Below, piece after piece: positions 5,752-47,073 of a stretch of 64,000 nucleotides of DNA. The translations under genes were made by a program, and so were the position numbers. The notes beneath the pieces were generated by a model that worked only from the letters and a program-made list of their open reading frames with translations, was not told the origin of the DNA and searched no databases. Location: the NCBI GenBank assembly GCA_963692865.2, contig OY843592.1:3104001-3168000 (forward strand), in the 5' to 3' direction. This DNA comes from a bacterium. Lineage in GTDB: Bacteria; UBA8248. The first letter of the stretch is position 1. Every line of letters begins with the position of its first letter.

Positions 5752-7143
5752 TCAAGCCGGAACACGCTCCGCCTTGGAGACAAGCTCCATCACCTCGGTG
5801 ATGCTGTTGAGATTTTCCAGATTCCTCACCCGCTCGATGAGCAACGCGCCCGTTTCCTTTTCGAGCGCAGGGGCCGTCATCACGTGGAATCGTTCGATTA
5901 ACTCATCCCAGGTCAACGGATTGCGCGAATCCCCCTTGGGATAATCCTGATGCGCCTCGAAAACGCCTCGATCCGTCTCGATCTCGACATGCGCCTGCCA
6001 TTTATCCGGAAATTCCTTTTCCATTTCGGCGTCGCCGCAGCATTCGATCTTCTTGATGATTGAAGAGTAAACCTGGGAGCGGAGGAAATCGTCGGCATAC
6101 TCGTCAAGCCCCGCGGCGCGCCTGAGTATCGCCACCGCCACGGCGTATTGGAGGCTGAACTGCGCGTCAACGATGTTTTGCGGATTCGTTTTCATGTCAT
6201 AGGGCTCGATGACCACCATCACGCTCGTCTCGGGGACCCGGACTTTCACCCGCCTGATTTCCTCGGGCCGTATGTCATGCGCTTTGCAAACTTCGATCGT
6301 GGCGTCAATCGAAGCATGGTTATAGCGGCAACATGCGTAGGGCTTTATGGCGCTCTCGCAGATTTCCCAATACTCGCCGAAGCGCTCGACCACGTACTCG
6401 GGCGTATAATCATCGCTATGGCCGTGCAAAAATCCCGTTTTCCCGCCCAGAATATCTTCCGGCCCCGTATAGCCTTCCTGCGCCAGATAGGCGGCGATGA
6501 TGCCGCTGTGCGCAGCCCACCCCGGGTGGAACCTCTTCGTCCAGGCCCCGTTGTCGAGGTATTGCATCGAACCCGCCGCCTGGCTGCCCGCGATGCCCAT
6601 CGCATTGGCGGTGGCCTCGACGGACAGCCCCAACAGCTTCGCTGCCGTGATCGCGGAAGCGAATGTGCCGCACGTGCCCGTAGGATGGAATCCGCGCTCG
6701 TAGTGGCTCGTCGGGTTCACGGCGTTTCCGATGCGATTGGTGACCTCGTAACCCGCCACGATGGCGGCGATGACCCGTTTCGGATCGGGTTGATGCGCCT
6801 CGGCGACCGCCAACGTGCTGGGCATGACGCTGACCGCGGGATGCAGGCTCGAGCGCGTGGTCACGTCATCCATTTCCGTGGCGTGGCTCACGCCGCCGTT
6901 CACCAGCGCGGCATGGGGGGCATCGGTTTTCAAATCCGAGCCGACGATGGTGCACGGCCCGCCGCCGGGCGCGCGCTTTCGGGCGAAATTGTGAAATACC
7001 CGGGAACTGGCCGCTTCCACCGCTCTCAAGGTAACGCCGAAGTGATCGAGCAGAAAATACTTCGCGCGCTCCCTGGCCTCCTCGGGCAGAGATTCGTATG
7101 TAACTGCGTGAACGTGCTCCACAAGCATCCGGCTGATATTCAT
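5752..7143 (-). CDS. MmgE/PrpD family protein
   Basis: NGGVSHATEMDD, GFHPTG, KRFHPG, KPYACC, QFSLQY; start reassigned to ATG 7143 (AAGGAG). Confidence 0.9.
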   Translation of the reverse strand: MNISRMLVEHVHAVTYESLPEEARERAKYFLLDHFGVTLRAVEAASSRVFHNFARKRAPGGGPCTIVGSDLKTDAPHAALVNGGVSHATEMDDVTTRSSLHPAVSVMPSTLAVAEAHQPDPKRVIAAIVAGYEVTNRIGNAVNPTSHYERGFHPTGTCGTFASAITAAKLLGLSVEATANAMGIAGSQAAGSMQYLDNGAWTKRFHPGWAAHSGIIAAYLAQEGYTGPEDILGGKTGFLHGHSDDYTPEYVVERFGEYWEICESAIKPYACCRYNHASIDATIEVCKAHDIRPEEIRRVKVRVPETSVMVVIEPYDMKTNPQNIVDAQFSLQYAVAVAILRRAAGLDEYADDFLRSQVYSSIIKKIECCGDAEMEKEFPDKWQAHVEIETDRGVFEAHQDYPKGDSRNPLTWDELIERFHVMTAPALEKETGALLIERVRNLENLNSITEVMELVSKAERVPA

Positions 7144-7369
7144 TCGAACTTCTCCTTCACTGAACCAGGCGTGTGATTCTTGGGTTTGCGCCTGCGCAGG
7201 CATTCTCCACAACCCGGGAAATCATCGTAGAACTCGCATATATCTCCTCCCGGCGCAAGGGCGGACGAGCCGCGCAAAGCCCCCGGGAGGCGGATGGGTT
7301 TGTCATAACGCACCCTTGCGGATAGAATTCGACATCATTTTCGCGTCCTCCCCGTTTTGGAGACATGAA

Positions 7370-9900: not shown

Positions 9901-10225
9901 TGGAGCCGACGGGAGTGGCGACGCGGCGGCTGTTCATCCCCTTCTCATAATTGGAAACGAAGCAGAAAAACAAAGACGAAACCTTTTTGTCCATTCCCTT
10001 GAAATCCGGCAGATTCCTTACTAAACCGCTGCTCGGGGCCGGACTGAACGGCTGGCGGATCAGGGGAAAAACCGATATGCTTTTGACGTGGAACAGATGG
10101 CGTCCTTCTCTTTTTCAGACATGGACGTAGCTTAACGCCGCCTTCCCCCGGAACGGCAACGCGTTATGCTATTCAGGATTCGGTGCAGGTCGAAAAGTTG
10201 GGGCTCATCACAGTGAACGGAGGCG

Positions 10226-11347
10226 ATGATGTTCAAACGACTCTACATCGACAACTACAGGTGTCTGGTTAATTTTGACTTGCCTTTGCAGGAAATGACG
10301 TTACTCCTGGGACGTAATGGTACCGGGAAAACCTCTATCCTGGACGTCATGTACGCCCTGCGTGAGCTATTGAGCGGCAGGGTAAAAATTTCAGATCAAT
10401 TTATATTCCCATCACGCACCCTGACGGGATGGCAATCCAACAATTTTCAAACATTCGAAATCGAGGTGCAAATTCACGAGGATGTTTTGGTCTACAGGCT
10501 CGAAATCGACCAAGACGCCACTAACGATATATCCCGAATTTCCCGGGAAATTCTTTCTTCTAAAGATGGGCAACCGCTGTTCAAGTTCGAGCATGGCGAT
10601 GTGCATCTTTTTCGTGATGATCATTCGGAAGGTCCGACTTATAAGACGGATTGGACTGAATCTGCTTTGGCGCGCGTTGCTCCCGGCGATAGCAACTCAC
10701 GGCTCACCAGATTCCTTGAAACCATGCGCAATGTGATAATTTGTGGATTATATCCGGCAAATTTCGAACCCGAATACACTCGCCACGAGCTGATGTTGGC
10801 GAGAAACGCGCAAAATTTTAGTTCTTGGTATCAACATCTTCAGTTGGAACAGCCCGGAAAAGTCGAGATATTCAGAAATACCCTCAGGTCTATAATCGAC
10901 GGTTTTGATGGAATAAGATTAGAGAAAGTCGGTATCAGTTCCCGTGCTTTTATGATGGACTTTAGAGAAAATGGGAGAGAATACAGTCTCGCTTTGGATG
11001 AAATTTCTGATGGGCAACGGGCATTAACGGCTCTATATGCGCTCGTTCATTTATCCTCTGGATTAGGATACATTCTTTTTCTGGACGAACCGGAAAATTA
11101 TCTGGCGTTAGCGGAGATTCAACCTTGGCTGATGGAGCTGTCTGAACATTGTGGTGAAGAAATACCGCAGGCCGTGCTTTGCTCTCATCATCCCGAATTG
11201 ATCGATTATCTAGGATATTCACATGGCGTTTCGCTTTCTCGGGAGAGGTCCGGAGCAGCGAAGTGGATGGATATCTCCGAATACGAATCACCTGCGGCGG
11301 AGGGGCTCAAATTGTCAGAGATTATTGCCAGAGGATGGGAAAGTTGA
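10226..11347 (+). CDS. ABC-type ATPase (AAA_15/AAA_21-like), putative defence sensor
   Basis: Walker A GRNGTGKT, signature ISDGQR, Walker B LFLDEPEN, H-loop SHHP; low GC. Confidence 0.85.
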   Translation: MMFKRLYIDNYRCLVNFDLPLQEMTLLLGRNGTGKTSILDVMYALRELLSGRVKISDQFIFPSRTLTGWQSNNFQTFEIEVQIHEDVLVYRLEIDQDATNDISRISREILSSKDGQPLFKFEHGDVHLFRDDHSEGPTYKTDWTESALARVAPGDSNSRLTRFLETMRNVIICGLYPANFEPEYTRHELMLARNAQNFSSWYQHLQLEQPGKVEIFRNTLRSIIDGFDGIRLEKVGISSRAFMMDFRENGREYSLALDEISDGQRALTALYALVHLSSGLGYILFLDEPENYLALAEIQPWLMELSEHCGEEIPQAVLCSHHPELIDYLGYSHGVSLSRERSGAAKWMDISEYESPAAEGLKLSEIIARGWES

Positions 11348-11886
11348 AGCGGCAAGCCGAACTTATCCTGCTCTGTGAAGATCAGCAACAAAAAACCTTC
11401 TTGACCCGTTTCTTCAAATCCATGGGATGGGAAAGCAGAAAACTCAGAGTCGAATCTTAGCCGCTTGGAAAGGGTTCCGCCGAGCAATTCGTACGTGAGA
11501 GATTCCCGGTGGAACTCAAAGCATACCGGCAGCGTAGAGATCACATTAATTGCAAGCTTGCCGTAATGCTCGATGGAGACAACCGCGGTCTTAATGTCAG
11601 GTTGAGAGGTCTCGAAAGCGCTTGCCGGCAGGTCTCGGTAGAGCCAAGAAAAAACGATGACCAAGTCGCCGTATTCGTTCCGACCTGGCGTATCGAGACG
11701 TGGTTCGCCTATCTCGACGGAGAAACGGTTGACGAAACAATACGCAATTATCCCCGCCTTGAGCGGCCTGGAGAATGTCAGCGCCATGTGGACGCTCTAA
11801 AGCAAATGTGCCTCGAAGGGCGTTTGCGTAACCCGTCCCCTCCATCTTTGGATGCTGCATGCCGGGAATATCGAACGCTCGGATAA
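11344..11886 (+). pseudogene. TOPRIM-like (DUF4276/RloB-like) nuclease interrupted by in-frame TAG at 11458-11460
   Basis: ORFs 11179-11460 and 11509-11886 share a frame: LILLCEDQQQ..RVES*PLGKGSAEQFVRERFPVELK..MLDGD..WRIETW; TTGA overlap with ATPase stop. Confidence 0.7.
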
Positions 11887-12045
11887 CGAGATTGAATTGC
11901 GCGAAAATTCCGTTTTTGTCCCTGCGCTTCGCTTCGAGGTTTTCTCATGTCTGGATCCGCGGCTCCGACCACGTTTCGCCCCTGACCGCCGCTCAGCCTC
12001 ACCCCGACTGCCGAGGGACCTATCGAAGGGCGGGAGGAGCGGATA

Positions 12046-12487
12046 CCTTGCGCCGGGGTGAGGGTCAATCGCTCCCGCATTAGTTGCGATTGACCTTCGA
12101 TACGCGGCTTCGCCGCTACTCAGGATGAGGCGGAGAGATAGGCCGCTGCGCAGGGTGAGGGGGCCGTCGGATCGGGATGAGGGGGGAATTTCGCTCCCGT
12201 AGGGGCGGCTCGCGAACGGCCCTTCCCGGAGAAAAAACGGGCGCTTCGTGAAGCGCCCCTACGGTCGTCTTTCAAGAGGGTATTGTATGTCAGACATATA
12301 TGTCTGACATATCATGCGGCCCTGATTTTCGCCTCCACAAGGCGGGCCGCATGATATGCGGCCCCTACAAAAACCGTTCCCCCCCCCGGTCGCGTAAAAC
12401 ACTCGTTCATCAGGACTTTTTCAACGGCCCCCTCAAGGGGGGAGTGATTGCCGCCCTGGTTCGTCATTCCGGCGCGCGCCGGAATCC
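12046..12487. repeat. Repeat island: CCTTCGATACG..CTACTCAGGATGAGG element, two GTAG-REP doublets, TIR, CCCCTCAAGGGGGGAGTG end, GTCATTCCGG palindrome
   Basis: 12046-12130 is a near-identical reverse complement of ~25319-25403; REP doublets at 12199-12262 and 12283-12369. Confidence 0.8.
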
Positions 12488-12594
12488 ATTTTGACTTTTC
12501 ACCGGGCGGGATCGACCACGACCCCGTCGCCGTCCTTTGCCGTAGGAGCGGGGTCGGCCACGGGCGTCCGCCCCCGCAAAACACCGCATCCCCG

Positions 12595-13941
12595 TCACCC
12601 CTCAATCCCGCCTCCCGCCGCATGGTCGAACACCTTCGCCGGATCGAAGTCCTCCATCCCGACCGGGGGCAGCGAAACGCCCGCGTACGCCCCCGCCGCG
12701 CGGAATTTCTCGAGCAGCTCCCCATCGCTCAGCGGCCTCTCCGGCATGCCGCGCGCGGCGCCGCAAAAGCCGGCGGCCGTGCGGCCGTCCTTCAAGCCGA
12801 GCGTGAGGCGGATGCTTTCGGGGTGTTTCTCGCGCATCTCGTCGGTGGAAAGATCGGGCGCGCGCTCGACGCTCACCCGCGCCATGAGGGCGGACTTCTC
12901 GGGGCAGACGGCGCCGGGCGCGAGGTCCTCATACCGCACCCGGCCGTTAAGCGCGGCGCAGGCCAGGGCGTAGGGCAGGCTGAACTGCATCTCCTGCGGC
13001 GTGGCCGGATTCGGAAACACGAGACTCTCGCAGACGAGCCGCGGCGCTTCGGCGTGAACCGCGGCGACGTCGTCCGCGCCCGCGCCGAGTTCCGCCATGA
13101 GTTCGACCATCAGTTCGATGGCGGCCAGCGCCGCCGAGCAGACCGGGCTGGTCTTGAAGAGCAGGCCCGGGTCGCACAGGCGCCAGCGCCGGCCGATGGT
13201 GTCGAGCGCGGCCTCATCGGCGACGCCGCCGTTGAGCAGCGCCAGAAAGCCCCACTCGTCCTCGAAGGCGGCTTCCGGCCCGGTCAGTCCGGCCTTTGCC
13301 GCCCGGGCGAACGTAACGGCCCGGCGCGCGGCCTCGCCCACGAGGAGGGGCTTGGCGTCCGTGCCGAGCACGACCTTTCCCCCGCCTGCGGCGGCCGCGG
13401 CCAGGCCGATCGCGCTCGTCATCGCGTCCTCATCGAACTCCAGCAGGCGTCCGGCGGCGGCGGTCGCGCCCGTGAGGCCCAACGTGACCGTGCTCCACCA
13501 GCCGCGAAAGTAGTGCCCGTGCGCGCACAGGTCGGCGAGGGCGTACGCGACCTCCGAACCCGCGACGAAGGCGCGGCGAAGCGCGTCGGCGCCGGAGCCG
13601 AGTTCCTGCGCGAGGCCTAAGGCGGCGGGCAGCACCACCGCCGATCCGTGCATGATTCCCGTGTAGGAGGTATCGTCGAAGTCCCAGACGTGCGCCGCCG
13701 TTCCGTTGACGAGCGCCGCCGCCTCCGGGTCCGCCCGCCCGCCGGTCGCGAGCGCCGCTCTCCCCTCCCCGCGCGTTACCGCCGCAGCCAGGGCGCGCAC
13801 GGATGGATGCGCGCCCCCCGCGAGCATGACGCCCAGGGTGTCGAGCATGGCCCTGTCCGCGGCCCGCCGGACCTCGGAGTCGACCCGGTCCAGACCGCAG
13901 GCGAACCTCGCGAATCGCCGGGCTATCGGCGGCGTTTTCAT
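12595..13941 (-). CDS. MmgE/PrpD family protein
   Basis: NGTAAHVWDFDD, FKTSPVC, QFSLPY; starts 18 nt after grdB stop. Confidence 0.88.
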   Translation of the reverse strand: MKTPPIARRFARFACGLDRVDSEVRRAADRAMLDTLGVMLAGGAHPSVRALAAAVTRGEGRAALATGGRADPEAAALVNGTAAHVWDFDDTSYTGIMHGSAVVLPAALGLAQELGSGADALRRAFVAGSEVAYALADLCAHGHYFRGWWSTVTLGLTGATAAAGRLLEFDEDAMTSAIGLAAAAAGGGKVVLGTDAKPLLVGEAARRAVTFARAAKAGLTGPEAAFEDEWGFLALLNGGVADEAALDTIGRRWRLCDPGLLFKTSPVCSAALAAIELMVELMAELGAGADDVAAVHAEAPRLVCESLVFPNPATPQEMQFSLPYALACAALNGRVRYEDLAPGAVCPEKSALMARVSVERAPDLSTDEMREKHPESIRLTLGLKDGRTAAGFCGAARGMPERPLSDGELLEKFRAAGAYAGVSLPPVGMEDFDPAKVFDHAAGGGIEG

Positions 13942-13959
13942 GCGGCGGCGGCCACCCCG

Positions 13960-15276
13960 TCAGTACTCGAACACCGTCGGGCCGTCCACGCTTTCGGCGA
14001 GCGCGGCGACGGCGGTGCGGGCCGCGCCCAGGCGCCATTCGCGCTCGGCCTCGGGCGTCCGGGAGGGGTCGCCGAAGGGATGGTGGAAGTGTCCGGCGCG
14101 GTTGTTGACGATGCGGTTGACCCCGATGTCGCGCGCCACGTCGGGCAGGCAGGTGACGACCACGGTGGGGATGCCCTCCCGCTCCAGCGCCCTCGCCAGC
14201 GCAGCCCCGCTACGCGTGCCGGTGCCTCACGTGGCGGGGAGGACGACGCCCTCGACGCCCGCCTTCTGGAGTTCCGCGGCCCAGGCGCGGCCGATGCCGT
14301 CCATGGCGGTGAAGGCGCCGCCGTTCCCGCAGGTGCTCAGGAAATCATCGTGCAGTTCGGCGATCTCGCCCTCCTCCGCAAGCCTGCGGAAGGCGTCCAC
14401 GGCGAGCATGCGGTCGGGCGCCTCGTTCACGAACACGGTGTTGAAGCCCCCGTGTATCGAGATGAACGCGCCGCCCGGAAGGGCGTCTTTCCCCGCGAAG
14501 GAATACGCCGCCCAGTTCTCGTTCCTGGAGCCCGAGAAGCGGTCCGGGTTGCCGGGGGGCACCATGCCGCCTTCGGAGACGATGGCGATGCGCGCCTTTT
14601 TGGGGTCGGCGACGGGCGCAGGGGGCGCTATCTCCTCCAAGGAGGGAACGTCGAGTTCGGTCTCGTAAGGCTCGCCCCTGATTTTCTTCAGCACCATGTC
14701 TACGGCGCGGCGCGAGGTGGGTAGCTCGGCGATCTCGTTGTAGCGGATACCGCGCGGGAGATAGCCCTCCTCGACCGCGCTTCGAATCTCCTCGCCACGG
14801 GCGAGCCTGAGACCCAGGCGGACGGCGGCTTCGAGCGCCTCCTCCATCCCGACGGCGGAATCGGCGGCGGGGACGGTGTGGACGCTCGCGCCGGCGGCGG
14901 GGAAACCGGGGTTTTCCGCGTGCATGGCGGTGACGACGGGAACGCCCGCCTCCTGCGCTGCGCGGCAGACGGCGGCGCAGGCCAGCCCGTAGCGCCCGGC
15001 GTTGAAGGCGGGTCCCGCGATGAGGAGATCGGGCGAATGCTCCATAATCCGCGCGAGCGCCTCTTCGGCGCAGGCCTCCTCGTTTTCGGCGAAAAGACCG
15101 TCGCCCGCGAAGACGGTGGCGGCGACTTCGGCGTCCGCACCCAGGATTTTATCCAGCAGCACGCCGGGGCCTATGGGGCCGGGACGACTGGATACGGGGT
15201 GATCGCTCCTCTCCTCGCCCCCCACGCCTGCGAAGAACTGGTTCAAGTAGTGAACGACCCGAAGTCTACCGCTCAT
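13960..15276 (-). CDS. grdB: Glycine/sarcosine/betaine reductase selenoprotein B, 438 aa, Sec at UGA 14227-14229
   Basis: VVHYLNQFFAGVGGEE, AGPAFNAGRYG, IHGGF; frame continues through TGA: VLPAT-U-GTGTRSGAALARALEREGIP..GVNRIV..HPFGDP. Confidence 0.9.
14199..14215 (-). promoter_or_regulatory. Putative bacterial SECIS hairpin of grdB
   Basis: UGA + 11 nt + GCGUAGC-GGG-GCUGCGC (17-nt hairpin with G loop). Confidence 0.65.
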
Positions 15277-15502
15277 TGCCCGGCCTCCTGTGTGGATTCA
15301 TCCAGATCGACATTTCAGGGAATTATATACCAAAGTAACACACAATCTCTCATGAAACGTCAGGTGAGTGTTAGCTTTTCACGCTCTGAACCATTGCTTC
15401 ATCCAGATGCTCCTGTCTGGCCTTGGCGCGGACTTTCTTCCAAAGTTCAGTCTGGCGCGGCTGATAGTCCATGGGCTTGAGGGGAGGGTTGGGGGGGCCG
15501 TT

Positions 15503-16108
15503 TCATCGGTTGCGTCCAGCCCGACGGCGTTCTCGCGCTATTTCTTCAATTAACGGAAACGGGTCTTCGATGAATGGAGTGCTCAGGGGCCAAGTCAAAG
15601 GCACGCTGGTGGCCAGCAGATTCTGTCGCTGATATTCGGTGTATCGCTTGTGTTTGGACCTCGGCAGATCCTCGTTACGGGCGAATCCGAATCGCCACTC
15701 CTGCCCAAACTCAAAAAGATTGACGGCGAGAATGTCGAATTTGCCCGGCAATAAACATGTGGTTTCGATGGCGCTTCCATCGGGCAGCCGAACTGTTCGC
15801 CTGTCGCTTGCATCCACCTGACACCGCCCTACATAGCCACCATTGCTTCGGCGAACGCTTTTCGTCTGCAACGACTTCACCTCTACGGTGATGGTCTCAC
15901 CCTGGTATTCAAAGCTGAAATCCGCCGGGCGCGTGCGGTCATGGTCATCATAACGGGTCAGTTTGTGTATTCGCGCATCAGAAAATACGGAGCGTTGCAA
16001 CTTGTATTCGGCGATAAAGCCGACCAAAGGCCCACGAGCGCTGGGCCTTTCGGATAGGATGATATTCAAGTCCTCTATGGTGAGACCCCAGTCCTCGATT
16101 ATCCCCAT
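15503..16108 (-). CDS. Putative type II restriction endonuclease (PD-(D/E)xK)
   Basis: [17 protein letters not shown]; overlaps methyltransferase stop. Confidence 0.7.
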
Positions 16109-16791
16109 GCTTGCTTTTTCTCGAATACGAGAAAATAGGAATGATTTTTGCGCGCATGTTTTTGTTTTAGAATGCGACTTGCGGCAGGCCGATTTCTGCG
16201 CATAACCACGAAGAGATCCCGAGCGTAAAAACCGTTCGCCGTGTACTCATTGATGATCTCTACGTGAGTCAACCATTGTTTGTTGGCGCTCACTTCATCC
16301 TGGCACTTCACAATCAGTACCCCTTTATTTCGCAATACCCTTGAGGCTTCCCGCCCGGCGGAAAAGTACATATCCAGCACGGCTGCATGATATTTCGGTC
16401 TCGTTGCGGGAGATTTACTCCCATTTGAATATGAGTCTCGAAAAGCGGCATACGAACCCGATCCTGCCAACATGGATTCTTGAGAACGATAGAACCCTTC
16501 CATGTACGGAGGATCGAGCACGACGCAATCAATGGTTTCATCACCATAGGGAAGTTTTCGGCAATCGACGTTCGTGCTTTCAATGTCGGATGCGATGACC
16601 TTGTAATCATCCGGGTCGACATTTTGCCAAAATATCCCCTTCCCATAAGTAACGTCCGCTATGGTGGAACCCCGGGGAACGTGAAGCTGTAATATCGAGG
16701 GGAATACGTCCGCATTTCCGGCAACGTGCGCGCTCAGAATCAAGTCGCTGGTAGCGACGCCGGATGGCGATTTTCGCGTTGCGCGACTCAT
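16099..16791 (-). CDS. Amino (N4-C/N6-A) DNA methyltransferase
   Basis: IADVTYGKG (SAM-binding) then VLDPPY; [15 protein letters not shown]. Confidence 0.82.
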
Positions 16792-17130
16792 GCCGCCGAA
16801 TCCTTGCGGCGGAACTTTTGAGCGTTAGGGTCGTGCTCAGGATGTTTCATTTATTCTTTTGTTTCCATCGGGCGGAGATTATAAAGGCCGGAAAACTCAT
16901 TCACGTATCTTTGGCGGTGTCTGCTTCTCATCTTATGATATACGCCATAATAGCCTCTTTTCAACATCGACCAAAACGACTCAATCCCGCTCGGGTGTGC
17001 TTATTATTCAGCAAGTAGATACTCATGGGCTCCATTGATTTTCGTTTTTTTTACACTATCCGTGGTATCCTTGTCAACTATATTCGGTTTTCCATCTTCT
17101 CGCGCTTGCCTTTGGCATGTTCTTTCGCGT
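16788..17130 (-). pseudogene. IS1595-family (ISXO2-like) transposase remnant
   Basis: Manual translation AHPSGIESFWSMLKRGYYGVYHKMRSRHRQRYVNEFSGLYNLRPMETKE*MKH; upstream fragment RKNMPKA; stops and deletions. Confidence 0.8.
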
Positions 17131-17175
17131 GTCAAACACCTGTTCGGGCGAACGTCTCCCTCGACGACCCCGCCC

Positions 17176-18459
17176 TTAGTACGCCCTGCCCACCATGTTG
17201 TTGATATCCCGCGCCCACTCGTTGGCGTAGTAGTCGCTGTCGGACAGGGTGAAGGCCTCGCGCATGTCGCATCGCCTGCCGTTGTAGAATTCCACGACTT
17301 CCGATCCGATGACCCGCTCCACCGCAGGGGCGGCGATGCGCTCCCCCTGCATCCCCTTCGAGACGACGGCGTCGGCCTCGGGCACGTGGAAGACGAGCGG
17401 GAACTCGCCCGAGCCCGGCTGGCCCACCTCGTAGATGATCGGAACGGCGCGCACGCCCGCCTGCTCGAGCGCCTGGACGGTGAGCCAGTAGTCCACCGTG
17501 GAGTTGCCGCCGCCCTCGAAGGCGAGCACCGCGCCGTCGGCCTTCAAGAGCGTTGCGAGCTTGGCGGCGTATTGCGCCGAGCGCTCCTTGAGGGCCTGGT
17601 TGTCGTGGTGGCCGCGCGTGATGATCATACCGCCGAAATCGAGGTCCACCCCGTGGCGGCGGTAGAGCTCGTATATGAGCGGCTTGTTGCAGTGCAGATA
17701 CGTCGGCGCTTTCTGCTGCGTCTTGTAGTTCGCCCCCACCACCGCGCCGTCGAGCATCTCGTTCGGGTGGATGAGGGTGGGCAGCGAATCCCCCAGGTTC
17801 TTGCCGTACATGAAGGTCTGGACCATGGACGCCTGGTGCATCACCTGATCGACGAACACGACGCGGGGGAGAGCGGGGTCGACATCTGCGAGTTCGAACG
17901 TCTCGACTTGTACGGGCGCCATATCCTTCGTGTGCGCGGCCAGCCGGGAGGCCAGTTTAAGCGTCGCGAGGCGCACGGCGTCGTCGTGCGCTTCGTTCGA
18001 GGCGCCCTCCAGCGGCTCGTAGCAGGCGACGAGGTTCGCGGTCTCCGAATTCGTGCAGTGAACCGCGCCGGGGCCGCACATGTCGATGATTCCCTCGCGA
18101 AAGCTCATGATGCCCGTCATGGGACCCAGGAAATGCGTGGAACTCACGACGCACATCCCGGCGAGCTTGTGCGTGCGGCCGTCGCCCGCCGTCTTCGCCG
18201 GGCCGAGAAATCCGGGATACGCGCAAGAGCGCCCGCTCACCTTGTAGAGCGGCTCGACGGCGTCCAGGACGTTCGTGATGCGGGCAGATTCACCCGGCGC
18301 AGCGGCGTCGAAGCGCACGCTCTTCAAGTCGCCCTCTTCGAGCGCGAGTTCGCGGAGTTCGTCCGCGTCCACGGTGAGCGTCCCGTCTTTGTATGCGAAG
18401 CGCTTCCCGACGATGATCTTCGAGACGGGGAAAAGGCCCATCTCCAGCCGCATGGACAT
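17176..18459 (-). CDS. Glycine/sarcosine/betaine reductase component B proprotein (GrdE/GrdG/GrdI family)
   Basis: APGESARITNVLDAVEP, AGDGRTHKLAG, EGIIDMCGPGA, LPTLIHPNEMLDGAVV, LKADGAVLAFEGGGN. Confidence 0.88.
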   Translation of the reverse strand: MSMRLEMGLFPVSKIIVGKRFAYKDGTLTVDADELRELALEEGDLKSVRFDAAAPGESARITNVLDAVEPLYKVSGRSCAYPGFLGPAKTAGDGRTHKLAGMCVVSSTHFLGPMTGIMSFREGIIDMCGPGAVHCTNSETANLVACYEPLEGASNEAHDDAVRLATLKLASRLAAHTKDMAPVQVETFELADVDPALPRVVFVDQVMHQASMVQTFMYGKNLGDSLPTLIHPNEMLDGAVVGANYKTQQKAPTYLHCNKPLIYELYRRHGVDLDFGGMIITRGHHDNQALKERSAQYAAKLATLLKADGAVLAFEGGGNSTVDYWLTVQALEQAGVRAVPIIYEVGQPGSGEFPLVFHVPEADAVVSKGMQGERIAAPAVERVIGSEVVEFYNGRRCDMREAFTLSDSDYYANEWARDINNMVGRAY

Positions 18460-18470
18460 ATTCGCCTCCC

Positions 18471-18923
18471 CTACCCCGCCGCGCGCATCGAGGCCAGGTC
18501 GCTCTCTATCTGCGGCAGGTCGAGCACCATTTCCATCATGAGCAGCTTCTCGGCGTACACGTCCCCGGGAACCTGGGCGCGCACCTTCTCTTCCAGAATG
18601 TGAAAAACGGGGAGTCCCAACGAGACTCCCGCCAGGGGCCCGGCCCAGCTCGGGTCTCCGGTGGTCAGCGTTTCGACCGCCAGCCGAAGGCCTTCACCGG
18701 GCATTCCCAACACCACCATCAGGTTCTCCGACCCGATTTCATCGGCGATCGACTTGATGGCGGACTGGTTCTCCAGGTCCATGGCGCCCGCGGAGGTTCA
18801 GACGAAACACTCCGTCTTCTCGAACACGACCTCCGCTCCCGCCGCCTCGATACACTCGGCGATCAGCGGGCCGGGAACGCCGTCGCGCTCGCCGAGCGCG
18901 ATCACCTTCTTGCCCTGGAACAT
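18471..18923 (-). CDS. grdA: Glycine reductase selenoprotein A, 150 aa, Sec42 at UGA 18798-18800
   Basis: [52 protein letters not shown]; GGAGG RBS. Confidence 0.95.
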
Positions 18924-18954
18924 GAGCATCCTCCACCTGCAAAAAACGAACGAA

Positions 18955-20382
18955 TCAAACCTCTATCAGCACCGAAGCTCCGTCGGCCTGCCGGGACATC
19001 CGGCCCAGGAACAGACTCCCTTTGGCGACGACCATTGTACTCGCAAGGCGGCCCGCCCGCATCCGCTCCAGGGCGTGGCCGAGAAAGGGAACGCCCGCGG
19101 GGATGTGGCCCTGCGTGGGCGCGAAACCGGGCATCCCGCGGGTTTCGACGAAGCCCGGAATCTCCTCGCGGGCGATCTCCCCGCCCATGACCGCCAGGGC
19201 GGCCAGCATCCTGTAGTTCGCGGCGGCCACGTCTCCCGCGCCCGCGGGCAGCATGATCTCGGGATTGTGCAGTTCGACGGCGTACTTATCGACGCTACCC
19301 ATCTTGCGTCCGGCGCGCGCCAGCGGATCCCGCACGAGCGCCTCCGCCAGCCCTTGCGGGGTGGAGGGTTTTCCCGCCGCGTGGCGTCCGGCGATCTGGA
19401 GATTCACCCGGGGGCTGGCGTCCGCATCTCCGGTAAGAAAAAACGCCACGCCGCCCAGTACGTCTTCCAGGACGGGTATCTCCTTCTCCAGATGGAAGTA
19501 GGCCTTCATCCCCAGCTTCGCCATCGAACCGCCGCCGACGACGGCGGCGTTCCCGACGACGCCCGCCTCGATGAGCGCCGCTGCGTGTACGAGCGCATAA
19601 ACGGGCGCCGCGCAGAAGGACTTCACGTCCACGCCCGCCGCATTGGCGCAGCCCGCCATCTCGGCGATTGCCTTGGCGAGATTGCCGCCGCCGCGGTTGT
19701 AGCGGTCGCCTACCGCCTCCTCCGAACAATTGATGACGTACTCTACCCGCCAGGGCGCGATGCCCTCCTGAACGAGAAGTCGGCGCAATGCGTATGCGCC
19801 GCTGGCCTTGGCCGCGAGGTTCTCCAGCAAAATGCGGGCGTCGAGGGATTCGTCCGACTCATGATCTCGGCGAACGCAGCCGATCAAGCTCCCATCCTGA
19901 AAAAGCGGCAGGGCCTCTCCCCGCTCGATGCGCCCTGAAATGTCTTCCCGCTTGTATTCCCTGGGTGGTTTTTCCCCATCGAGAAGCGCAGCGGCGGATT
20001 CGGAACCTACCTCACCCGGAACACGGCGCTCCCTATCGAGCATGATCAACCCGAACTGATCGGCCGCCTCAATAAGGGCGTAGAAGGCATCCTGCGGGAG
20101 GATTTCCCCGAAAGCGCCCTCGGGCGATGCGCCAGCGGGGGAATTCTCGTACCAGGGAGTGGGGAGTTCACCCAAATCCTCGGGCGCGATATTGCCGATG
20201 AAGGCTTGATTCGGCGCGTAGTCGACCGCATCTGCGAAAGACCGTAACTCCGTGAATTCCTCGCCCGGCGCCTGCTCCTTCCTTACGGCCTCGCGCCAGG
20301 GTTTCGAGCCGTAACGGACCAGATCGGGAACATGAACGAGAACGTTCGCCGCCGCGCGCAGATACGCAGTCATCACAGCCAC
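18955..20382 (-). CDS. grdC: Glycine reductase component C beta subunit (FabH-like fold)
   Basis: [68 protein letters not shown]. Confidence 0.92.
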
Positions 20383-20466
20383 CCAAAAAGGAGGAAGGAA
20401 AGTCTACGGGGGAATTTGTACCGGAAACGAGAGGGCGCCGCCATGCCTGCCCTCGACTGAACCGCC

Positions 20467-21252
20467 CTACCCCGCGGTATAGCCGCCGTCGGCGTATAGA
20501 ACGTGGCCGGTGTAGAAATCCGACGCGCTGGATGCGAGGAACAGGAGCGGCCCGGCCAGATCTTCGGGCTCGCCCAGCCGCCCCTTGGGGATCCGGCTCA
20601 CGATGCCGTCGCGCGTCCTGACGGCTTCGGGCGCGTCTGTGAACATCCAGTCCGTAAGTGCGGAGCGGAAGACGGTCGGCCCGACCGCGTTGACGGTGAT
20701 GCCCGTCGGCCCCAGCTCGCAGGCGAGCGCCTTCGTGATGCCGTCCACCGCCGCCTTCGACGCGCAATAGGCGGTATAGCCCGCGGGGTGGCCGAGAATC
20801 CCGCGCGTCGAGGAGACCAGGACGATCTTGCCGCCCTCTCCCTGTGCCTTCATCCGCCGCGTCGCGGCGCGCGCCAGAAGCCACGACTGCGTGACGTTCG
20901 CGTCCATGACGTCGGCGAACGCCGCGGGCGCCATCTCATCTATCTTCCCCACCCTGTTGATGCCCGACGCCACCACCAGGATGTCGAGGCGGCCATATTC
21001 CTCGACGGCCTTCTCCACCATACCGTCGGCCGCGGCCTCGGACTCGGGCCGCGCGTTCACCGCGGCGACTTCGGCCCCCAGCTCGCGGCACTCACCGGCA
21101 ACCGTTTCGAGCGCCTCCGCTGTTCCGGCGGTCAGCGTGAGGCGGCAGCCCGCTTCTGCCAGCGTCCGCGCGGCGACCGCGCCGAATGCGCCCGAAGCGC
21201 CTGTAATGAGCGCTGAGCGTCCGCTTACGTCGAATAATTCCGAGGGTTTCAT
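20467..21252 (-). CDS. Short-chain dehydrogenase/reductase
   Basis: ITGASGAFG, YCASK, YADGGY; start at MKPSEL. Confidence 0.9.
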   Translation of the reverse strand: MKPSELFDVSGRSALITGASGAFGAVAARTLAEAGCRLTLTAGTAEALETVAGECRELGAEVAAVNARPESEAAADGMVEKAVEEYGRLDILVVASGINRVGKIDEMAPAAFADVMDANVTQSWLLARAATRRMKAQGEGGKIVLVSSTRGILGHPAGYTAYCASKAAVDGITKALACELGPTGITVNAVGPTVFRSALTDWMFTDAPEAVRTRDGIVSRIPKGRLGEPEDLAGPLLFLASSASDFYTGHVLYADGGYTAG

Positions 21253-21386
21253 GTCGTACTTTCCTGATAGGGGACACGACCCGCGTCCCGCAGGCGTGAG
21301 AGATGATTCCGTATGCCCCATGCTAGGTATCATGCGGTCGTCGTGTCAAGAATGTAGGGGTTGTCATCTCCTGCAGTAGTGAAAGA

Positions 21387-21645
21387 AATCACTCCCCCCT
21401 TGAGGAGGAGTCGCGGAAACCAAGCCCTTGGGCGAAGGTTGACGCGGTGGGGGGTAGAATGCATTTTATCGCCATTGTGAATTTTACCCCCCACCAGTTC
21501 GCTTTCGGGCTTGCGCCCTCACCTCACTGACTCCCCCTCAAGGAGTGATTGGCTGGCGCTCTACAAGGGAGGAATATAGTTACCTCCCTCCTTGGGCGGG
21601 CACCATACGTGGAATTACGAAATCGTGGGCTTTTTCAATAACCCC
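21387..21645. repeat. Composite MITE-like element (CACTCCCCCCTTGAGG..CTCCCCCTCAAGG core plus TIR)
   Basis: Core 21390-21547; TIR GGCTTTTTCAATAACCCC near 21627-21645. Confidence 0.75.
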
Positions 21646-21755
21646 TCATCGCTCGCGTTTGACGCTCAAGAGATTGATCCCCAAACCGCGCGATCGAACG
21701 GACGCTCAGTCCCGCCCCTGCAAAATCATTTTCGTGTTTACCGGCTAGCCCTCCG

Positions 21756-23057
21756 TCAAACGACCTCGACCCAGGTCTTCATGCCCGACGCCTGGTGGGC
21801 CAGGGTGTGGCAGTGGATCAGCCATTTGCCGGGGTTGTCGAACACGCAGAGGACGTCCCGTCTCCGGCGCGGGTCGACCAGGGTGGTGTCGCGGTAATGG
21901 CCGGGCGCGCCGTCCTCGCCGAGTTCGTGGAAGTGATGGCCGTGGATGTGGATACCGTGCGGAAAGGCGGTGTCGTTGCGCATCGTGATCAGCGCCGTCT
22001 CGCCTCGCTCGAAGCGCCGCCAGGGCGCGTCCGGCAAGCCGGAATGGTCGTTGAAGGCCCAGAAATCCTTGCCCCCGTGCCGCCCGCCCATCGCGCCGCC
22101 CTGCATGGCGAGCGTAAGCCGCCGCGCGTTTTTGCGGTCCGGCGCAGGGATATTGACCGGCGGCAGGGGCGCGACCGGGGCGTCGATGGGCGCGGGGTTC
22201 GCGCCTTGCGCCGTGATTTTGCCGAGTTCATAAGGTCCGCGCCGGGTCAGGAAGGCGAAGGTGACCGTCGCTGCGACGTCGAGGATGACGTCGGTCCGCT
22301 GCGCGGGCGCCAGTTCCAGCTCACCGAGCGGCTCGGTCTCAGCCAACGGCATGCCGTCATGCGCCACGATCTTGCCTTCGCCGCCGCCGATCTTCACCTG
22401 GAAAATCCGCGCCGTCGCCGTGTTGATCAGCCGCAGGCGAACCCGGTCTCCGCGACGCACCGTCTCCCGGGAGGGGAGCGCCCGTCCGAAGTTGCCGAGC
22501 CGCCCGTCATGGGAGAAGTCGTGCCGGTTGCCAAAATTCGGTTGCAGCTCGCCGCTGCGCGTCAGTCGCCAGTCGTCGAGTACCACCGTGATGTCGTGGT
22601 CGACGCGCGGCGGGTCGCGTTCCTCGACGATCAGGGGGCCGTAGAGACCCATCGCCACCTGCTCCCAGGAACGCTCGTGCGAGTGGTACCAGTAGGTGCC
22701 CGCGTAGGGCATGTCGAAAGCGTAGTCGAACGTCGCGCCCGGCTTGACCGTCGCCTGGGTGAGTCCCGGAACCCCGTCCATCGGGTTGTCGATGTGGATA
22801 CCGTGCCAGTGGATGGCGGAGTCGTGCTCGATCCCGTTCTCGAAGGTGACGGCTACCCGGCCGCCCTGGCGGGCGCGGATCTCGGGACCCGGCGTCGAAC
22901 CGTTGAACCCGAGCATTCGCGTCACGCCCTGCCCATCCGGCAGGAGGCGGGCGGTGACGGGTTCTGCCTTGAGGCGCATAGCCGATGGCGCCGTCCATCC
23001 GGTCGCGGGGGCCAGCGCCGTCGCCGCCAACGCCAGAAGAAAATCCCTTCGATTCAT
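21756..23057 (-). CDS. Tat-exported multicopper oxidase
   Basis: MNRRDFL Tat signal; HWHG, WYHSH, HGIHIHGH, HCHTLAHQASGM copper ligands. Confidence 0.93.
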   Translation of the reverse strand: MNRRDFLLALAATALAPATGWTAPSAMRLKAEPVTARLLPDGQGVTRMLGFNGSTPGPEIRARQGGRVAVTFENGIEHDSAIHWHGIHIDNPMDGVPGLTQATVKPGATFDYAFDMPYAGTYWYHSHERSWEQVAMGLYGPLIVEERDPPRVDHDITVVLDDWRLTRSGELQPNFGNRHDFSHDGRLGNFGRALPSRETVRRGDRVRLRLINTATARIFQVKIGGGEGKIVAHDGMPLAETEPLGELELAPAQRTDVILDVAATVTFAFLTRRGPYELGKITAQGANPAPIDAPVAPLPPVNIPAPDRKNARRLTLAMQGGAMGGRHGGKDFWAFNDHSGLPDAPWRRFERGETALITMRNDTAFPHGIHIHGHHFHELGEDGAPGHYRDTTLVDPRRRRDVLCVFDNPGKWLIHCHTLAHQASGMKTWVEVV

Positions 23058-23507: not shown

Positions 23508-24908
23508 CTACGCGGGACTCGCCTCCCGAACCTTCTCCGCCAGCAGGGCGGTGAGGGAGGCGATGTCTTCGACCGCATCGAGGCGATACCAGGCGTCCCA
23601 GGCGGCCTGGGCCTTTTCTTCGGTGAGGCCGGCGGCGCACTCCAGGAACTTTTCCTTGAGTTCGAGCTCGGTGAGCGGATTTTCGACGTGGCCGCGCGCG
23701 CGGGCGAAAAAGCGGGTGAGTTCGCGCCCGTCCTTGAGTTTCACCCAGACTTCGGCCGCCTCCGTCTCGGGGTCCTCGCGCGCCATCTTCTCATCCAGTT
23801 CGAACGCCACGCGCTTCTGGAGGGCGGCGATCTCGGGCCGCCCCACGCTGTCTTCCTCGAACTGGCGGATGCCGACCTTGCGGTCCACCAGGGCCGAGGC
23901 GATGCAGAACGGCATGGAGAATTTTCCTTCGAGACCCGTGGCGGCCTCCTTGTAGCGCAGGACCTTGAGCGTCATGGTGGATGCGCGCGCGCCGAGAGCC
24001 GCCACGTCGGCGACGTGGATGTCCTCACGCTTCACCAGATCGAGCATGGCGTCGATGCCGGGATGCGTCATAGCGCAGCAGGGGTGGATCTTCACGCAGA
24101 CGCCCTCCTCGATGTCCCAGGGCCGCCCCCAGGGGGCGACCGCGCGCTCCCAGTCCGCGAACTCATGCGCCCTGGGTCCGATACCCTCCGCCGCCATGGC
24201 CGCCGTGAAGCCCGTCTCCAGCGTATCCTCCGCCGCCGTGAAGCCGTCTTCTGCGAGTTTCGCCGCCACGAGGCCCGCCCGCGCGGACTGGCCCGCGTGG
24301 AATGGCTTGGTCATCGTGCCGAAGTTCGACACCAGCCCCGCCGAGCCACTCGCGCCCAGGCTCAGGGCGTTTCGCGTCTGTTCCTCATCCAGACCCAGCA
24401 GATAGGCGCAGGCGCCCGCCACGCCGACGGATCCCAGCGTGGCCGTGGCGTGAAAGCCCCGGCGGTAGTGCATGGGGTTCACCGCGCGGCCCAGGACGTG
24501 CAACAGCTCGAAGCCGAGCGTGTAGGCTTCGAGAACCTTCGCGCCGCCGATTCCGCGCTCCTCGGCCAGCGCGATGAGCGCGGGCACGAGGGTGACGCTC
24601 GGGTGGCCCAGCATCACGAAGTCCACGTCGTCGTAATCGAGCGCATGGCCCGCCGTGCCGTTCACGAAGGCGGCCCAGGAGGCGCTCGTGCGCTCCTCCG
24701 CCCCGATGAGCCGCGCGACGGGTGCGCCGCCCTCTGACGCCGCCAGCCGATGCGCCAGCCGCGCGCACTCATCCCCCCTGCCCGCCAGAATCACGCCCAG
24801 CGTATCGAGGGCGGCGTTTCGCGCCCCCGCGCGGGCGGCCTCGCCGACGTCCGAAGCGTGAACCGCCGCGATTCTTTTCGCCAGTTCTCTTGTGGCCGGG
24901 TAGGTCAT
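23508..24908 (-). CDS. MmgE/PrpD family protein
   Basis: NGTAGHALDYDD, GFHATAT, TKPFHAG, KIHPCC, KFSMPF; start MTYPAT. Confidence 0.9.
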   Translation of the reverse strand: MTYPATRELAKRIAAVHASDVGEAARAGARNAALDTLGVILAGRGDECARLAHRLAASEGGAPVARLIGAEERTSASWAAFVNGTAGHALDYDDVDFVMLGHPSVTLVPALIALAEERGIGGAKVLEAYTLGFELLHVLGRAVNPMHYRRGFHATATLGSVGVAGACAYLLGLDEEQTRNALSLGASGSAGLVSNFGTMTKPFHAGQSARAGLVAAKLAEDGFTAAEDTLETGFTAAMAAEGIGPRAHEFADWERAVAPWGRPWDIEEGVCVKIHPCCAMTHPGIDAMLDLVKREDIHVADVAALGARASTMTLKVLRYKEAATGLEGKFSMPFCIASALVDRKVGIRQFEEDSVGRPEIAALQKRVAFELDEKMAREDPETEAAEVWVKLKDGRELTRFFARARGHVENPLTELELKEKFLECAAGLTEEKAQAAWDAWYRLDAVEDIASLTALLAEKVREASPA

Positions 24909-24956
24909 GGAGGGAATCTCCTTGTGTGCGGGTGAAGTCCAAGAGAAAGGTTTTCG

Positions 24957-25460
24957 TAGGGGCGAACCTGCGTGTTCGCCCCTAGATGGTTTGTTGAAAA
25001 AGTCCTTGCGGGTCGGGCCAAAACTTTCTCCCCTTGCAAAGCGCCCAACAACCACTCCCCCCTTGAGGGGGAGTCACAGAGGCCGAGCGGTTTATGCGAA
25101 GGCCGATGTGGGGGGGGATATGCCACAGAATAAAATCTCCCGCCACCGAATCGCTTGCGGGCATTCGCCCTTAGATCTTCGACTCCCCCTCAAGGGGGGA
25201 GTGAACTTCAAAAGCGTGGACGCAACCCAAAATCGCTTCCCGGACTTTTTCAACAGCCCCTCAAGGGTTTGTTGAAACACCTCCGTCTCCGACCCCCGCA
25301 AACCGACGACACTTCTTTCCTCATCCTGAGTAGCGGCGAAGCCGCGTATCGAAGGTCAATCGCAACTAATGCGGGAGCGATTGCTCCTCACCCCGGCGCG
25401 AGCCTTCGACTCCCCTCGCCCTTCGATACGCCGCCTCCGGCGGCTACTCAGGGTGAGGGG
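24957..25460. repeat. Repeat island: GTAG-REP, TIR-bounded composite MITE (24988-25260), CCTCATCCTGAGTAG..CTACTCAGGGTGAGG element
   Basis: Direct reading; core 25053-25203 is similar to 27712-27880 and, inverted, to 23309-23480. Confidence 0.8.
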
Positions 25461-30495: not shown

Positions 30496-30722
30496 CTTTC
30501 CCTCACAAAAAATGTTCATACGGGCCGACTCAGACCGACGCGCTGAAGCGGCCTCGCCCTTTTGCATTTTCCTCTCACTTTCAGGACGCCAACTCTAGCC
30601 TCAAAGGGCGCGCGTTTCAAAGGGGATATCCATTTTCAGGCGAAATATGCTTTAATGCGCCAAAACCCAGACGGCAAGCGAGCGCATTCTTTTTTGCCGC
30701 TTCACGGGTGAAGGAGAGCCGC

Positions 30723-31820
30723 ATGGACGCGAATCACCCCCTCGCCACGCGCGAGGAGCTGGCCAATCTCGATTTCTTCGACGACCTCGCCGACCGCTAC
30801 CTCGCCGTGGACGGTCTGGAGGCGCGCTGGGTGCCTTTCACCAAAAAAGAGATTCTCCCCGACAGAAAAACCGCCGGGCGCATGCACTACCTCGTCTCCC
30901 TCGCGCGCGCGGTCGAAGAGACGCTCGATTCCGCCTTTCGCGCGGGCCACATCCCCGGCACCGCCTTTTTCGGGCGGGGAAACGAGGGGGCGAGCGTCGC
31001 GAGCGCGATGTGTCTCGAAGACCACGAATGGCTCGTGCCCATGCACAGAAACTGCGGCGCGCACCTCGCCAAGGGCCATCCGCCCAGGAGCATCATGTCG
31101 CATTTCTTCGGACGCGCCGACGGCCCCTCGGGCGGTCGCGACGGGAATTTTCACGTGGGCTACCGCCCCAAGCGCATCACCCAGCTCATCAGCCACATCG
31201 GCACCATGGTGCCCATCGCGACGGGCGTGGCGTGGGCGGCCAAGGCGCGCGGCAAGGGCGAGGCCACCATCAACTACATCGGCGACGGCGGCACGAGCTC
31301 GGGCGACTTCCACGAGGCGGTGAACTTCGCCGCCGTGCGCAAGCTCCCCCTCGTCGTCATCATCGACAACAACCAGTACGCCTACAAGACGCTCCTGAGC
31401 GACCAGTACGCCTGCGACGCCCTGGTGCTCAAGGCGCCCGGCTACGGGATCCCCGGCTTTCTCATCGACGGCACGAACGCGCCCCTGATGCGCCACGTCT
31501 GCAGCCAGGCGCTCGCGCGCGCGAGGGCGGGCGGCGGACCCACGCTCATCGAGAGCGTCACCCTGCGCGCGGCGGGCCATTCGGTCTACGACAAGTTCGC
31601 CGACTACGCCGACATGGCGCACTTCGAGCAGTGGACGGACGAGCGCGACCCCCTCAAGCGGCTCGACGAGATTTTCGTCGAGTTCGGCGTCATGACGGCG
31701 AAAGAGGTCGCCGCCTCGCATGATAAAGCGAGAAAAGACGCCGAAGACGCGAGAGATGAGGCGCTCAAAAGCCCGATGCCCGACCCCGCGCGCCTGACCG
31801 AAGGGGTATTCGCCGAATGA
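30723..31820 (+). CDS. 2-oxoacid dehydrogenase E1 alpha subunit (TPP-dependent)
   Basis: GDGGTSSGDFHEAVN..DNNQYA TPP motif; RAAGHS. Confidence 0.9.
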   Translation: MDANHPLATREELANLDFFDDLADRYLAVDGLEARWVPFTKKEILPDRKTAGRMHYLVSLARAVEETLDSAFRAGHIPGTAFFGRGNEGASVASAMCLEDHEWLVPMHRNCGAHLAKGHPPRSIMSHFFGRADGPSGGRDGNFHVGYRPKRITQLISHIGTMVPIATGVAWAAKARGKGEATINYIGDGGTSSGDFHEAVNFAAVRKLPLVVIIDNNQYAYKTLLSDQYACDALVLKAPGYGIPGFLIDGTNAPLMRHVCSQALARARAGGGPTLIESVTLRAAGHSVYDKFADYADMAHFEQWTDERDPLKRLDEIFVEFGVMTAKEVAASHDKARKDAEDARDEALKSPMPDPARLTEGVFAE

Positions 31821-33169: not shown

Positions 33170-33280
33170 GGCAGGGGAGCGGCTTGAAGTGGTTTAGGCG
33201 CGTGGCGGCTCTTGTGTGGCGGGTCACTTTCGGTAAAGATGCGACTCGACTTGTTTCCCCTGCTCGTTCAGGACTTATCC

Positions 33281-46951: not shown

Positions 46952-47073
46952 GAGTCCACCTCCTCCGTATTTGTCTGAGACTTAAGCATAGTCGCGCCTG
47001 CACAAGAGCGAGCAGACGCCGAAACCATCAAACCTCCTTATTCACCAAGGGCGCAGGATGCACGAACGCCGCC

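Follow-up and report, generated by a model that had tools for sequence, protein, structure and literature searches.

A 64,000-nucleotide stretch of a Nitrospinota genome (contig OY843592.1, positions 3,104,001 to 3,168,000; hereafter the window) carries on its minus strand a four-gene cluster, grdC-grdA-grdE-grdB, that is related to the genes of the clostridial glycine reductase. The product of this cluster is probably a functional enzyme of the glycine/sarcosine/betaine reductase family that depends on selenium, belongs to an uncharacterized clade, acts on a substrate that forms no Schiff base and releases its two-carbon (C2) product by a route other than acetyl phosphate. Judged from the sequences, what is new is a Grd-type clade that has no characterized member and is set apart by three lineage-wide departures from the clostridial enzyme, namely the lack of the acetyl-phosphate-forming subunit GrdD, the loss of both cysteines of the UxxCxxC motif in GrdB, and the replacement of the Asn-Cys self-cleavage site in GrdE. 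An earlier reading of the window, made from the sequence alone, had pointed to these three features, and all of them proved to be real and conserved. The observations in hand concern gene content, conservation, selection, signals for the decoding of selenocysteine (Sec) and the placement of the clade.

With TGA translated as selenocysteine, the cluster begins with grdC (18955-20382), which encodes a 475-residue beta-type subunit of protein C with a thiolase-type Cys257 (569 bits on model NF040746, cut-off 450). It is followed by grdA (18471-18929, 152 residues), the gene of selenoprotein A, in which the TGA at 18798-18800 encodes Sec44 within the motif CFVU (202 bits on NF040748, cut-off 130; 201 bits on PF04723); the extended motif CFVUT is present in 82 of 83 GrdA homologues. 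Protein B is represented by a grdE-like gene (17176-18459, 427 residues, PF09338 at 357 bits) and by a grdB-like gene for selenoprotein B (13960-15276, 438 residues), in which the TGA at 14227-14229 encodes Sec350 within ATUGTGTRSG (PF07355 at 384 bits).

A GrdB-like gene was found in 36 of 51 Nitrospinota genomes (18 of the 29 that are of high quality), with one in-frame TGA in nearly all matches and in every full-length one. Within the family of loci to which the window belongs (f1), the order grdC-grdA-grdE-grdB is kept in 11 of 12 cases, the twelfth being cut by a contig end, and clustering of the neighboring frames returned no additional gene that is conserved across the family. The real conserved unit is grdC-grdA-grdE-grdB. 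Three genomes of the genus (G035, G029 and G032) contain a second, 48%-identical cluster, in which the order is grdA-grdC-grdE-grdB and the motif following Sec reads UGSGTRSG; in the only one of these that was fetched (L068, G035:C1:1196800-1216700), the gene that follows it encodes a TctC-type binding protein.

The absence of grdD from the window extends to the whole 4.15-Mb, 97%-complete assembly, where the best match to the GrdD model NF040747 reaches 20 bits against a cut-off of 350 and the best tblastn match of a verified GrdD has an E value of 0.41. As a positive control, GrdD of Clostridium fallax scores 574 bits on the same model. None of the 51 Nitrospinota genomes contains a GrdD (NF040747, E of 1e-10 or better). 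When C. fallax GrdD was used in tblastn searches of 100 loci, GrdD was located directly after grdC in 52 of them and in none of the Nitrospinota loci; outside Nitrospinota, it follows grdC in 50 of 50 loci with a full-length grdC once three exceptions are set aside, which belong to one Armatimonadota and two delta-proteobacterial metagenome-assembled genomes (MAGs). Genome-wide searches of these three MAGs, and of two more with grdE and grdB, one from Burkholderiales and one from Dehalococcoidia, likewise returned no GrdD (0 of 5). From a contig scan, the best 80 of at least 589 stretches were used, so that the distribution beyond the phylum is under-sampled.

Protein C itself differs between the two groups. 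In a tree of GrdC, a single branch with 100% support in the Shimodaira-Hasegawa-like approximate likelihood ratio test (SH-aLRT) parts 15 GrdD-less from 20 GrdD-linked sequences, in a quick search on 35 rows picked from 70. Cys257 is invariant in all 70 GrdC sequences, and the two groups are distinguished by fixed differences that include K27, R227, Y228, K254, K293 and H372. This split argues for two old kinds of protein C. The acetyl-accepting cysteine of the clostridial enzyme was reportedly located on GrdD by Kohlstock and colleagues in 2001. For the glycine reductase of Desulfovibrio desulfuricans G11, which yields acetyl phosphate, both C subunits are described (PMC7547702). No publication on a Grd variant without GrdD, as judged by titles, or on a glycine reductase of Nitrospina was found in a literature search that covered sources other than subscription journals.

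The second departure lies in the residues that follow Sec in GrdB, where UxxCxxC is named as the motif of the protein in a recent review (PMC13188914). Among 103 full-length GrdB homologues, the canonical UGTCTRCG is found in 80 and UGTGTRSG in 14, all of them members of the family of the window; UGSGTRSG occurs once, in the divergent second copy with the order A-C-E-B, and the remaining eight have other variants in which at least the second cysteine is retained. A census of cysteines in 16 members of the clade, set against 88 other GrdB and 81 other GrdE sequences, shows Gly and Ser at the two positions concerned (353 and 356) in every one of the 16 members, whereas Cys is found in 83 and 88, respectively, of the 88 others. 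Sec350 itself aligns with Sec in all 88. Four other cysteines are specific to the clade: Cys316 (in STCGNGG) and Cys376 (in VTCLPD) of GrdB are present in 16 of 16 members and in none of the 88 others, and Cys135 and Cys257 of the GrdE-like protein are present in 16 of 16 members and in at most 4% of the 81 others. From this pattern, the two lost UxxCxxC cysteines appear to have been replaced by these four residues. Many metagenomic GrdB-like proteins of 45-50% identity (P0061-P0129), all of them cut at Sec, also have the additional cysteine of the clade, in the form TCGNHG or TCGNGG; their source names include Burkholderiales, Candidatus Hydrogene(dentes) and Chloroflexi, once each.

The third departure is found in the GrdE-like protein, which reads GAN-YKTQQK at the site where clostridial GrdE, with SGN-CVSACDK, is self-cleaved. 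The GrdB-like protein falls below the equivalog cut-offs for glycine GrdB (TIGR01917, 381 versus 602 bits), sarcosine GrdF (NF040794, 405 versus 800) and betaine GrdH (NF040795, 346 versus 775), and passes only the broad subfamily model TIGR01918 (397 versus 65). The GrdE-like protein remains below every equivalog cut-off, including those of GrdG (NF040793, 250 versus 780) and FarE (NF053623, 136 versus 675). With IHGGFNT and STCGNGGAF, the GrdB-like protein also fails both the GrdB motif AHGGxD..TxGNxTxV and the GrdF motif IHGGYDR..TTGTGT that were published by Nobu et al. (PMC9751293). A search of PDB sequences with the GrdB-like and GrdE-like proteins returned no solved relatives.

In two GrdB trees rooted on PrdB, both of them obtained in quick searches from selected subsets and containing several long branches, the clade of the window (97-98% SH-aLRT) lies outside the clade that holds the verified GrdB, GrdF and GrdH proteins and is separate from FarB; the second copy and one metagenomic protein that likewise reads GTGTRSG fall together with it. 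The GrdB-like protein is thus placed apart from the glycine, sarcosine and betaine reductases, grdD is missing from the rest of the genome and the sel genes are present, so that most of the outcomes that the sequence-only reading had named as refuting it did not occur. Compared with the clostridial glycine reductase (GrdA, GrdB-GrdE and GrdC-GrdD with thioredoxin, as in Peptoclostridium, Clostridium and Acetoanaerobium), the system of the window shares the CxxU motif of GrdA, the Sec of GrdB at 350, a partner of the GrdE family and the thiolase-type cysteine of GrdC. It differs in lacking GrdD and the Asn-Cys site, in having UGTGTRSG in place of UGTCTRCG, in the order C-A-E-B, in the absence of thioredoxin genes from the cluster, and in a GrdB that is outside the GrdB/F/H clade. 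The D-proline reductase PrdA/PrdB is more remote; PrdB, the outgroup of the trees, is distantly homologous to the C-terminal half of GrdB and has a UxxC motif, and unlike the system of the window it has no partnership with GrdA or GrdC.

The genes are under purifying constraint on both sides of their UGA codons. The ratio of nonsynonymous to synonymous substitution rates (dN/dS), calculated against four relatives, is 0.08-0.19 for all four grd genes; for grdB it is 0.12-0.18 before the UGA and 0.07-0.17 after it, and for the part of grdA after the UGA it is 0.09-0.13. In all 10 of the f1 orthologues, the grdB frame is open past the UGA and ends with a conserved PTVFEY. Eleven nucleotides past this codon lies a hairpin of 7 bp with a 3-nt loop (14199-14215, minus strand) that resembles a selenocysteine insertion sequence (SECIS), and in an alignment of 12 distinct sequences all 84 of its 84 cells are paired, as opposed to 10-54% in control versions slid by 1-3 columns. 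Two of the pairs are altered on both sides (GC/AU and CG/UG/UA), one of these changes at the cost of an amino-acid replacement. Folds of single sequences past both UGA codons were no better than those of shuffled sequences (z of +1.0 and +1.2), and an Rfam scan of positions 12000-22000 with E up to 1 returned one chance-level match and no SECIS family. A search for sequencing runs gave 23, among them no RNA run. Since the sample is small and related, the covariation is taken as support rather than proof; together with the low dN/dS, which persists past the UGA codons, it indicates a functional enzyme and not decay.

The genome is equipped to decode these codons. The nearest database proteins (85-93% identity) belong to entries named Nitrospinae or Nitrospinota bacterium, and the genome, a Nitrospinota assembly, contains selA (567 bits), selB (392 bits) and selD (335 bits), all above their cut-offs, together with two tRNA-Sec genes identified by aragorn, one of them on a second contig; selD itself has an in-frame TGA. 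The assembly is rated 6.7% contaminated. As selA is present in 49 of the 51 Nitrospinota genomes (the two that lack it are 79% and 67% complete), the use of selenocysteine is general in the phylum and not tied to the grd cluster. Thioredoxin genes are absent from the window, as had been noted before, and the chromosome encodes a thioredoxin reductase-like protein (42% identity) and a thioredoxin-like protein only elsewhere, far from it. Outside the window, the same genome also holds three short PrdB/GrdB-like genes (L003:1105-2052, minus strand; L004:1090-1992, minus; L005:1321-2163, plus) whose TGA stop falls exactly at the Sec position of GrdB and whose in-frame readthrough continues with UPLCMRS, UPLCNRS or UGLCNRS and about 100 further codons; their best family is PrdB (120-154 bits, cut-off 300), and they are probably additional selenoproteins.

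The substrate, the product and every chemical step of the reaction are what we infer, and the course proposed here follows the established scheme of the family (Andreesen 2004, cited in PMC13188914). The GrdE-like/GrdB-like pair would bind an alpha-substituted carboxylate, X-CH2-COO-. Since the GrdE-like protein is unable to form a pyruvoyl group, the departure of X would involve no Schiff base. Sec350 of GrdB would attack the alpha carbon, the carboxymethyl group would be passed to Sec44 in the CxxU motif of GrdA, and Cys257 of GrdC would accept the C2 unit as an acetyl thioester, leaving GrdA to be released in the oxidized state and re-reduced by the thioredoxin system, the genes of which are found in other parts of the genome. 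As there is no GrdD to phosphorolyse the thioester, the C2 unit would be released by another route, most likely to coenzyme A (CoA) by thiolase-type chemistry or by hydrolysis. The substrate would most likely be an N-substituted glycine or an onium-type carboxymethyl compound that derives from the breakdown of N-heterocycles or osmolytes.

Several gene contexts outside the window bear on this choice of substrate class. Two genomes of the genus encode, after grdB, a dihydropyrimidinase-like hydantoinase (392 bits, cut-off 393) together with a luciferase-like oxidoreductase and TctABC. The genes that come after grdB in a streamlined genus (2.2 Mb) are those of two CoA-transferase subunits, an M20 hydrolase, a luciferase-like oxidoreductase, a pyridoxal phosphate-dependent enzyme and a molybdenum enzyme resembling xanthine dehydrogenase (XDH). 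Relatives at the level of the class have a different GrdB clade that keeps UGTCTRCG, and hydantoinase and XDH-like genes are found beside grdB in four of their loci. As weak hints, these contexts recall heterocycle breakdown, none of them being located beside the cluster of the window.

A number of observations weigh against the assignment of a functional enzyme with this substrate class and C2 release. The release as acetyl-CoA is purely inferred, a CoA-transferase is found beside grdB in one locus only, and an unrelated protein could replace GrdD. The clustering of neighboring frames yielded no clade-wide conserved neighbor that points to a substrate, and the neighbors in the window (a short-chain dehydrogenase/reductase (SDR), an MmgE/PrpD-family protein and a multicopper oxidase) are unlike those found in other genera. 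Cys57 of GrdB, which is Cys in 86 of 88 sequences outside the clade, is Ala in 10 of 16 clade members, the species of the window among them. In addition, the covariation of the hairpin rests on only 12 related sequences, and in the genome of the window a 1.9-kb insert, described below, parts grdB from grdCAE and could disturb their co-expression.

Among other explanations, a betaine-type reductase, which like GrdH/GrdI would convert glycine betaine or a related onium compound (dimethylsulfonioacetate or arsenobetaine) to a tertiary amine or sulfide and a C2 unit, deserves to be taken seriously, even if it is unlikely. Onium osmolytes are common in the sea, and close relatives of the window sequence are titled as marine metagenome-assembled genomes. 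The GrdE-like protein resembles GrdI in lacking the Asn-Cys site; GrdI reads SGSFMPCSSKW at this position and has no pyruvoyl site, and therefore needs no Schiff base. GrdH, in contrast, is a poor counterpart of the GrdB-like protein: the verified GrdH proteins keep both cysteines (UGTCTRCG in 4 of 4), exceed 775 bits on NF040795, a model on which the protein of the window has its lowest score among the three GrdB-type equivalogs, lie inside the GrdB/F/H clade and work with both GrdC and GrdD. Furthermore, no betaine transporter gene is located beside any locus viewed.

The closest precedent for the changes in protein B is the fluoroacetate reductase FarB/FarE of Cloacibacillus porcorum and other Synergistota, in which the loss of one or both cysteines and of the pyruvoyl site is likewise combined in one protein B. 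The authors describe farB as lacking the conserved cysteines and farE as not encoding a proprotein (PMC10838667). Among the verified Far loci, the motif is UGTSSRCG in two and UGTSSRGG in a further one, and the GrdE site carries a deletion. No named protein B other than FarB is without the UxxCxxC cysteines. The loss of both features is therefore known for substrates that need no Schiff base, and the idea of such a substrate, which is plausible, has published precedents in FarB/FarE and GrdI and is less unprecedented than the sequence-only reading had supposed. It does not follow that the enzyme of the window is itself a reductive dehalogenase of haloacetates, which is rather improbable. Its proteins are not Far orthologues, given the score on the FarE model reported above, the separate long branch on which FarB lies and the other residues that replace the cysteines; the antiporter and radical-SAM genes of the far operon are not found nearby; and the Synergistota with Far are described as carrying grdC and grdD too (PMC10838667), whereas the Nitrospinota genomes are without GrdD.

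Comparable doubt attaches to an ordinary glycine or sarcosine reductase that would rely on a different carbonyl group and reach acetyl phosphate by a different route, for instance at the end of a glycine-based carbon pathway. GrdA and GrdC do pass their equivalog cut-offs, and some GrdD-less loci of other phyla (L082) keep an Asn-Cys GrdE, a GrdB that reaches 628 bits on the glycine model (cut-off 602), and genes for thioredoxin and thioredoxin reductase in the cluster. The GrdB of the window, however, fails the published GrdB and GrdF motifs (PMC9751293) and every equivalog cut-off, and a Tyr after the Asn of the cleavage site cannot yield a pyruvoyl group.

The genes that flank the cluster were considered as functional partners in the same light. 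The sequence-only reading had listed, in this order and co-oriented, the SDR gene, grdC, grdA, grdE, an insert, grdB and the MmgE/PrpD gene, all of which are there and on the minus strand, and had proposed that the MmgE/PrpD protein prepares the substrate or handles the product. The SDR-family oxidoreductase (20467-21333; PF13561/PF00106) is directly upstream of grdC and the MmgE/PrpD-family protein (12595-13941; PF03972 and PF19305) directly downstream of grdB, with gaps of 84 bp and 18 bp, and in genus g8 a distant MmgE/PrpD paralogue is located about 5 kb upstream of the cluster. A partnership of either is nonetheless a poor prospect, both being variable neighbors outside the conserved core. 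An orthologue of the MmgE/PrpD protein (at least 79% identity) is present in 11 genomes of the genus but is found beside grdB in only four; three have it on the chromosome that carries grdB but at a distance of more than 1 Mb, four have it on other contigs, and six more genomes of the genus have the grd cluster and only distant paralogues of this protein. The family is expanded, with one to eight copies in each of 47 of the 51 Nitrospinota genomes. The linkage, absent from most of these genomes and involving a family of so many copies, is best regarded as a local accident of a gene-rich family, and the proposed role of the MmgE/PrpD protein did not hold up. The SDR was rejected as a member of the system, since its orthologue adjoins the cluster in only four of eight loci of the genus. 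The window itself holds three MmgE/PrpD paralogues in all, within 20 kb of one another (5752-7212, 12595-13941 and 23508-25055).

The spacer between grdE and grdB is an insertion hot spot. Its length is 58-281 bp in six relatives; in four loci, that of the window among them, it is 719-2528 bp. In the window it is occupied by 1.9 kb of DNA of lower guanine-plus-cytosine (GC) content (15277-17175) that encodes, in the orientation of the operon, a DNA methylase (16099-16791; PF01555, 29.8 bits) and a 201-codon frame without a family match (15503-16108). The same pair, at 95% and 91% identity, occupies the same site in the relative G030 (1.85 kb), and the inserts of G014 (2.5 kb) and G035 (0.7 kb) complete the set; GC content is lowered in all of them. 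The insert of the window had been described as an insertion-sequence or restriction-modification element; as no transposase was seen, it is called restriction-modification-like and not an insertion sequence. A GAATGAATYCAT-like leader ahead of the ribosome-binding site of grdB is kept in most loci, including all four with an insert.

That the cluster might be a decaying remnant, with TGA codons that are plain stops, could be suspected from the split operon and from the fact that gene callers end GrdB at 349 residues in nearly all database entries, but this pseudogene reading was rejected as highly improbable on account of a dN/dS as low past the UGA as before it, the open frame up to PTVFEY, the covarying hairpin, the complete Sec machinery, and an insert that leaves the flanking genes and the conserved grdB leader intact.

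Further features of the window lie apart from the cluster. A low-GC island (10001-12000, 49%), probably a defense or mobile element, contains the gene of an AAA_21/AbiEii-type ATPase (10226-11347), with some 1.2 kb between it and the MmgE/PrpD gene. Another operon, a 2-oxoacid dehydrogenase cluster, also has a foreign-looking insert (33212-34940), placed between its genes for E1 (30708-32809) and E2 (35378-36652); a second PF01555 DNA methylase is encoded there on the minus strand (33825-34940), along with an unassigned frame (33212-33886). At 45845-49032, some 25 kb away from the grd genes, a gene for an AtzD/TrzD-type ring-opening amidohydrolase (408 bits) adjoins that of a large amidohydrolase, which hints at cleavage of rings of the s-triazine or barbiturate type.

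Two ideas that go beyond the assignment of the window cluster can be linked, and the combination is put forward tentatively, as a possibility with less in its favor than the assignment itself. Nitrospinota and several other non-clostridial phyla may use an ancient, GrdC-only protein C that hands a selenium-bound C2 unit directly to CoA or water and forms no acetyl phosphate, and in Nitrospinaceae this protein C may be paired with a cysteine-rewired protein B that reductively cleaves a carboxymethyl compound other than a free amine, for instance an onium osmolyte or a glycine with an N-acyl or N-carbamoyl group that stems from ring-opened heterocycles.

Grd-type enzymes are the textbook energy-conserving reductases of strict anaerobes, the point of which is acetyl phosphate, and cultured Nitrospinota are aerobic marine nitrite oxidizers. 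A complete, selected, two-selenoprotein version of Grd that lacks the acetyl-phosphate subunit is common in this phylum. It offers a natural experiment on the role of the UxxCxxC cysteines and the pyruvoyl group, both of which are lost in a clade that has fixed four other cysteines. If the enzyme is active, the family would have two kinds of protein C that differ in their product and at least one further class of substrate, and there would be a link to organic matter in the metabolism of a globally important group of nitrifiers. Should both linked ideas be true, presumed aerobic or microaerophilic nitrite oxidizers would harvest carbon and nitrogen from dissolved organic matter in a selenium-dependent manner.

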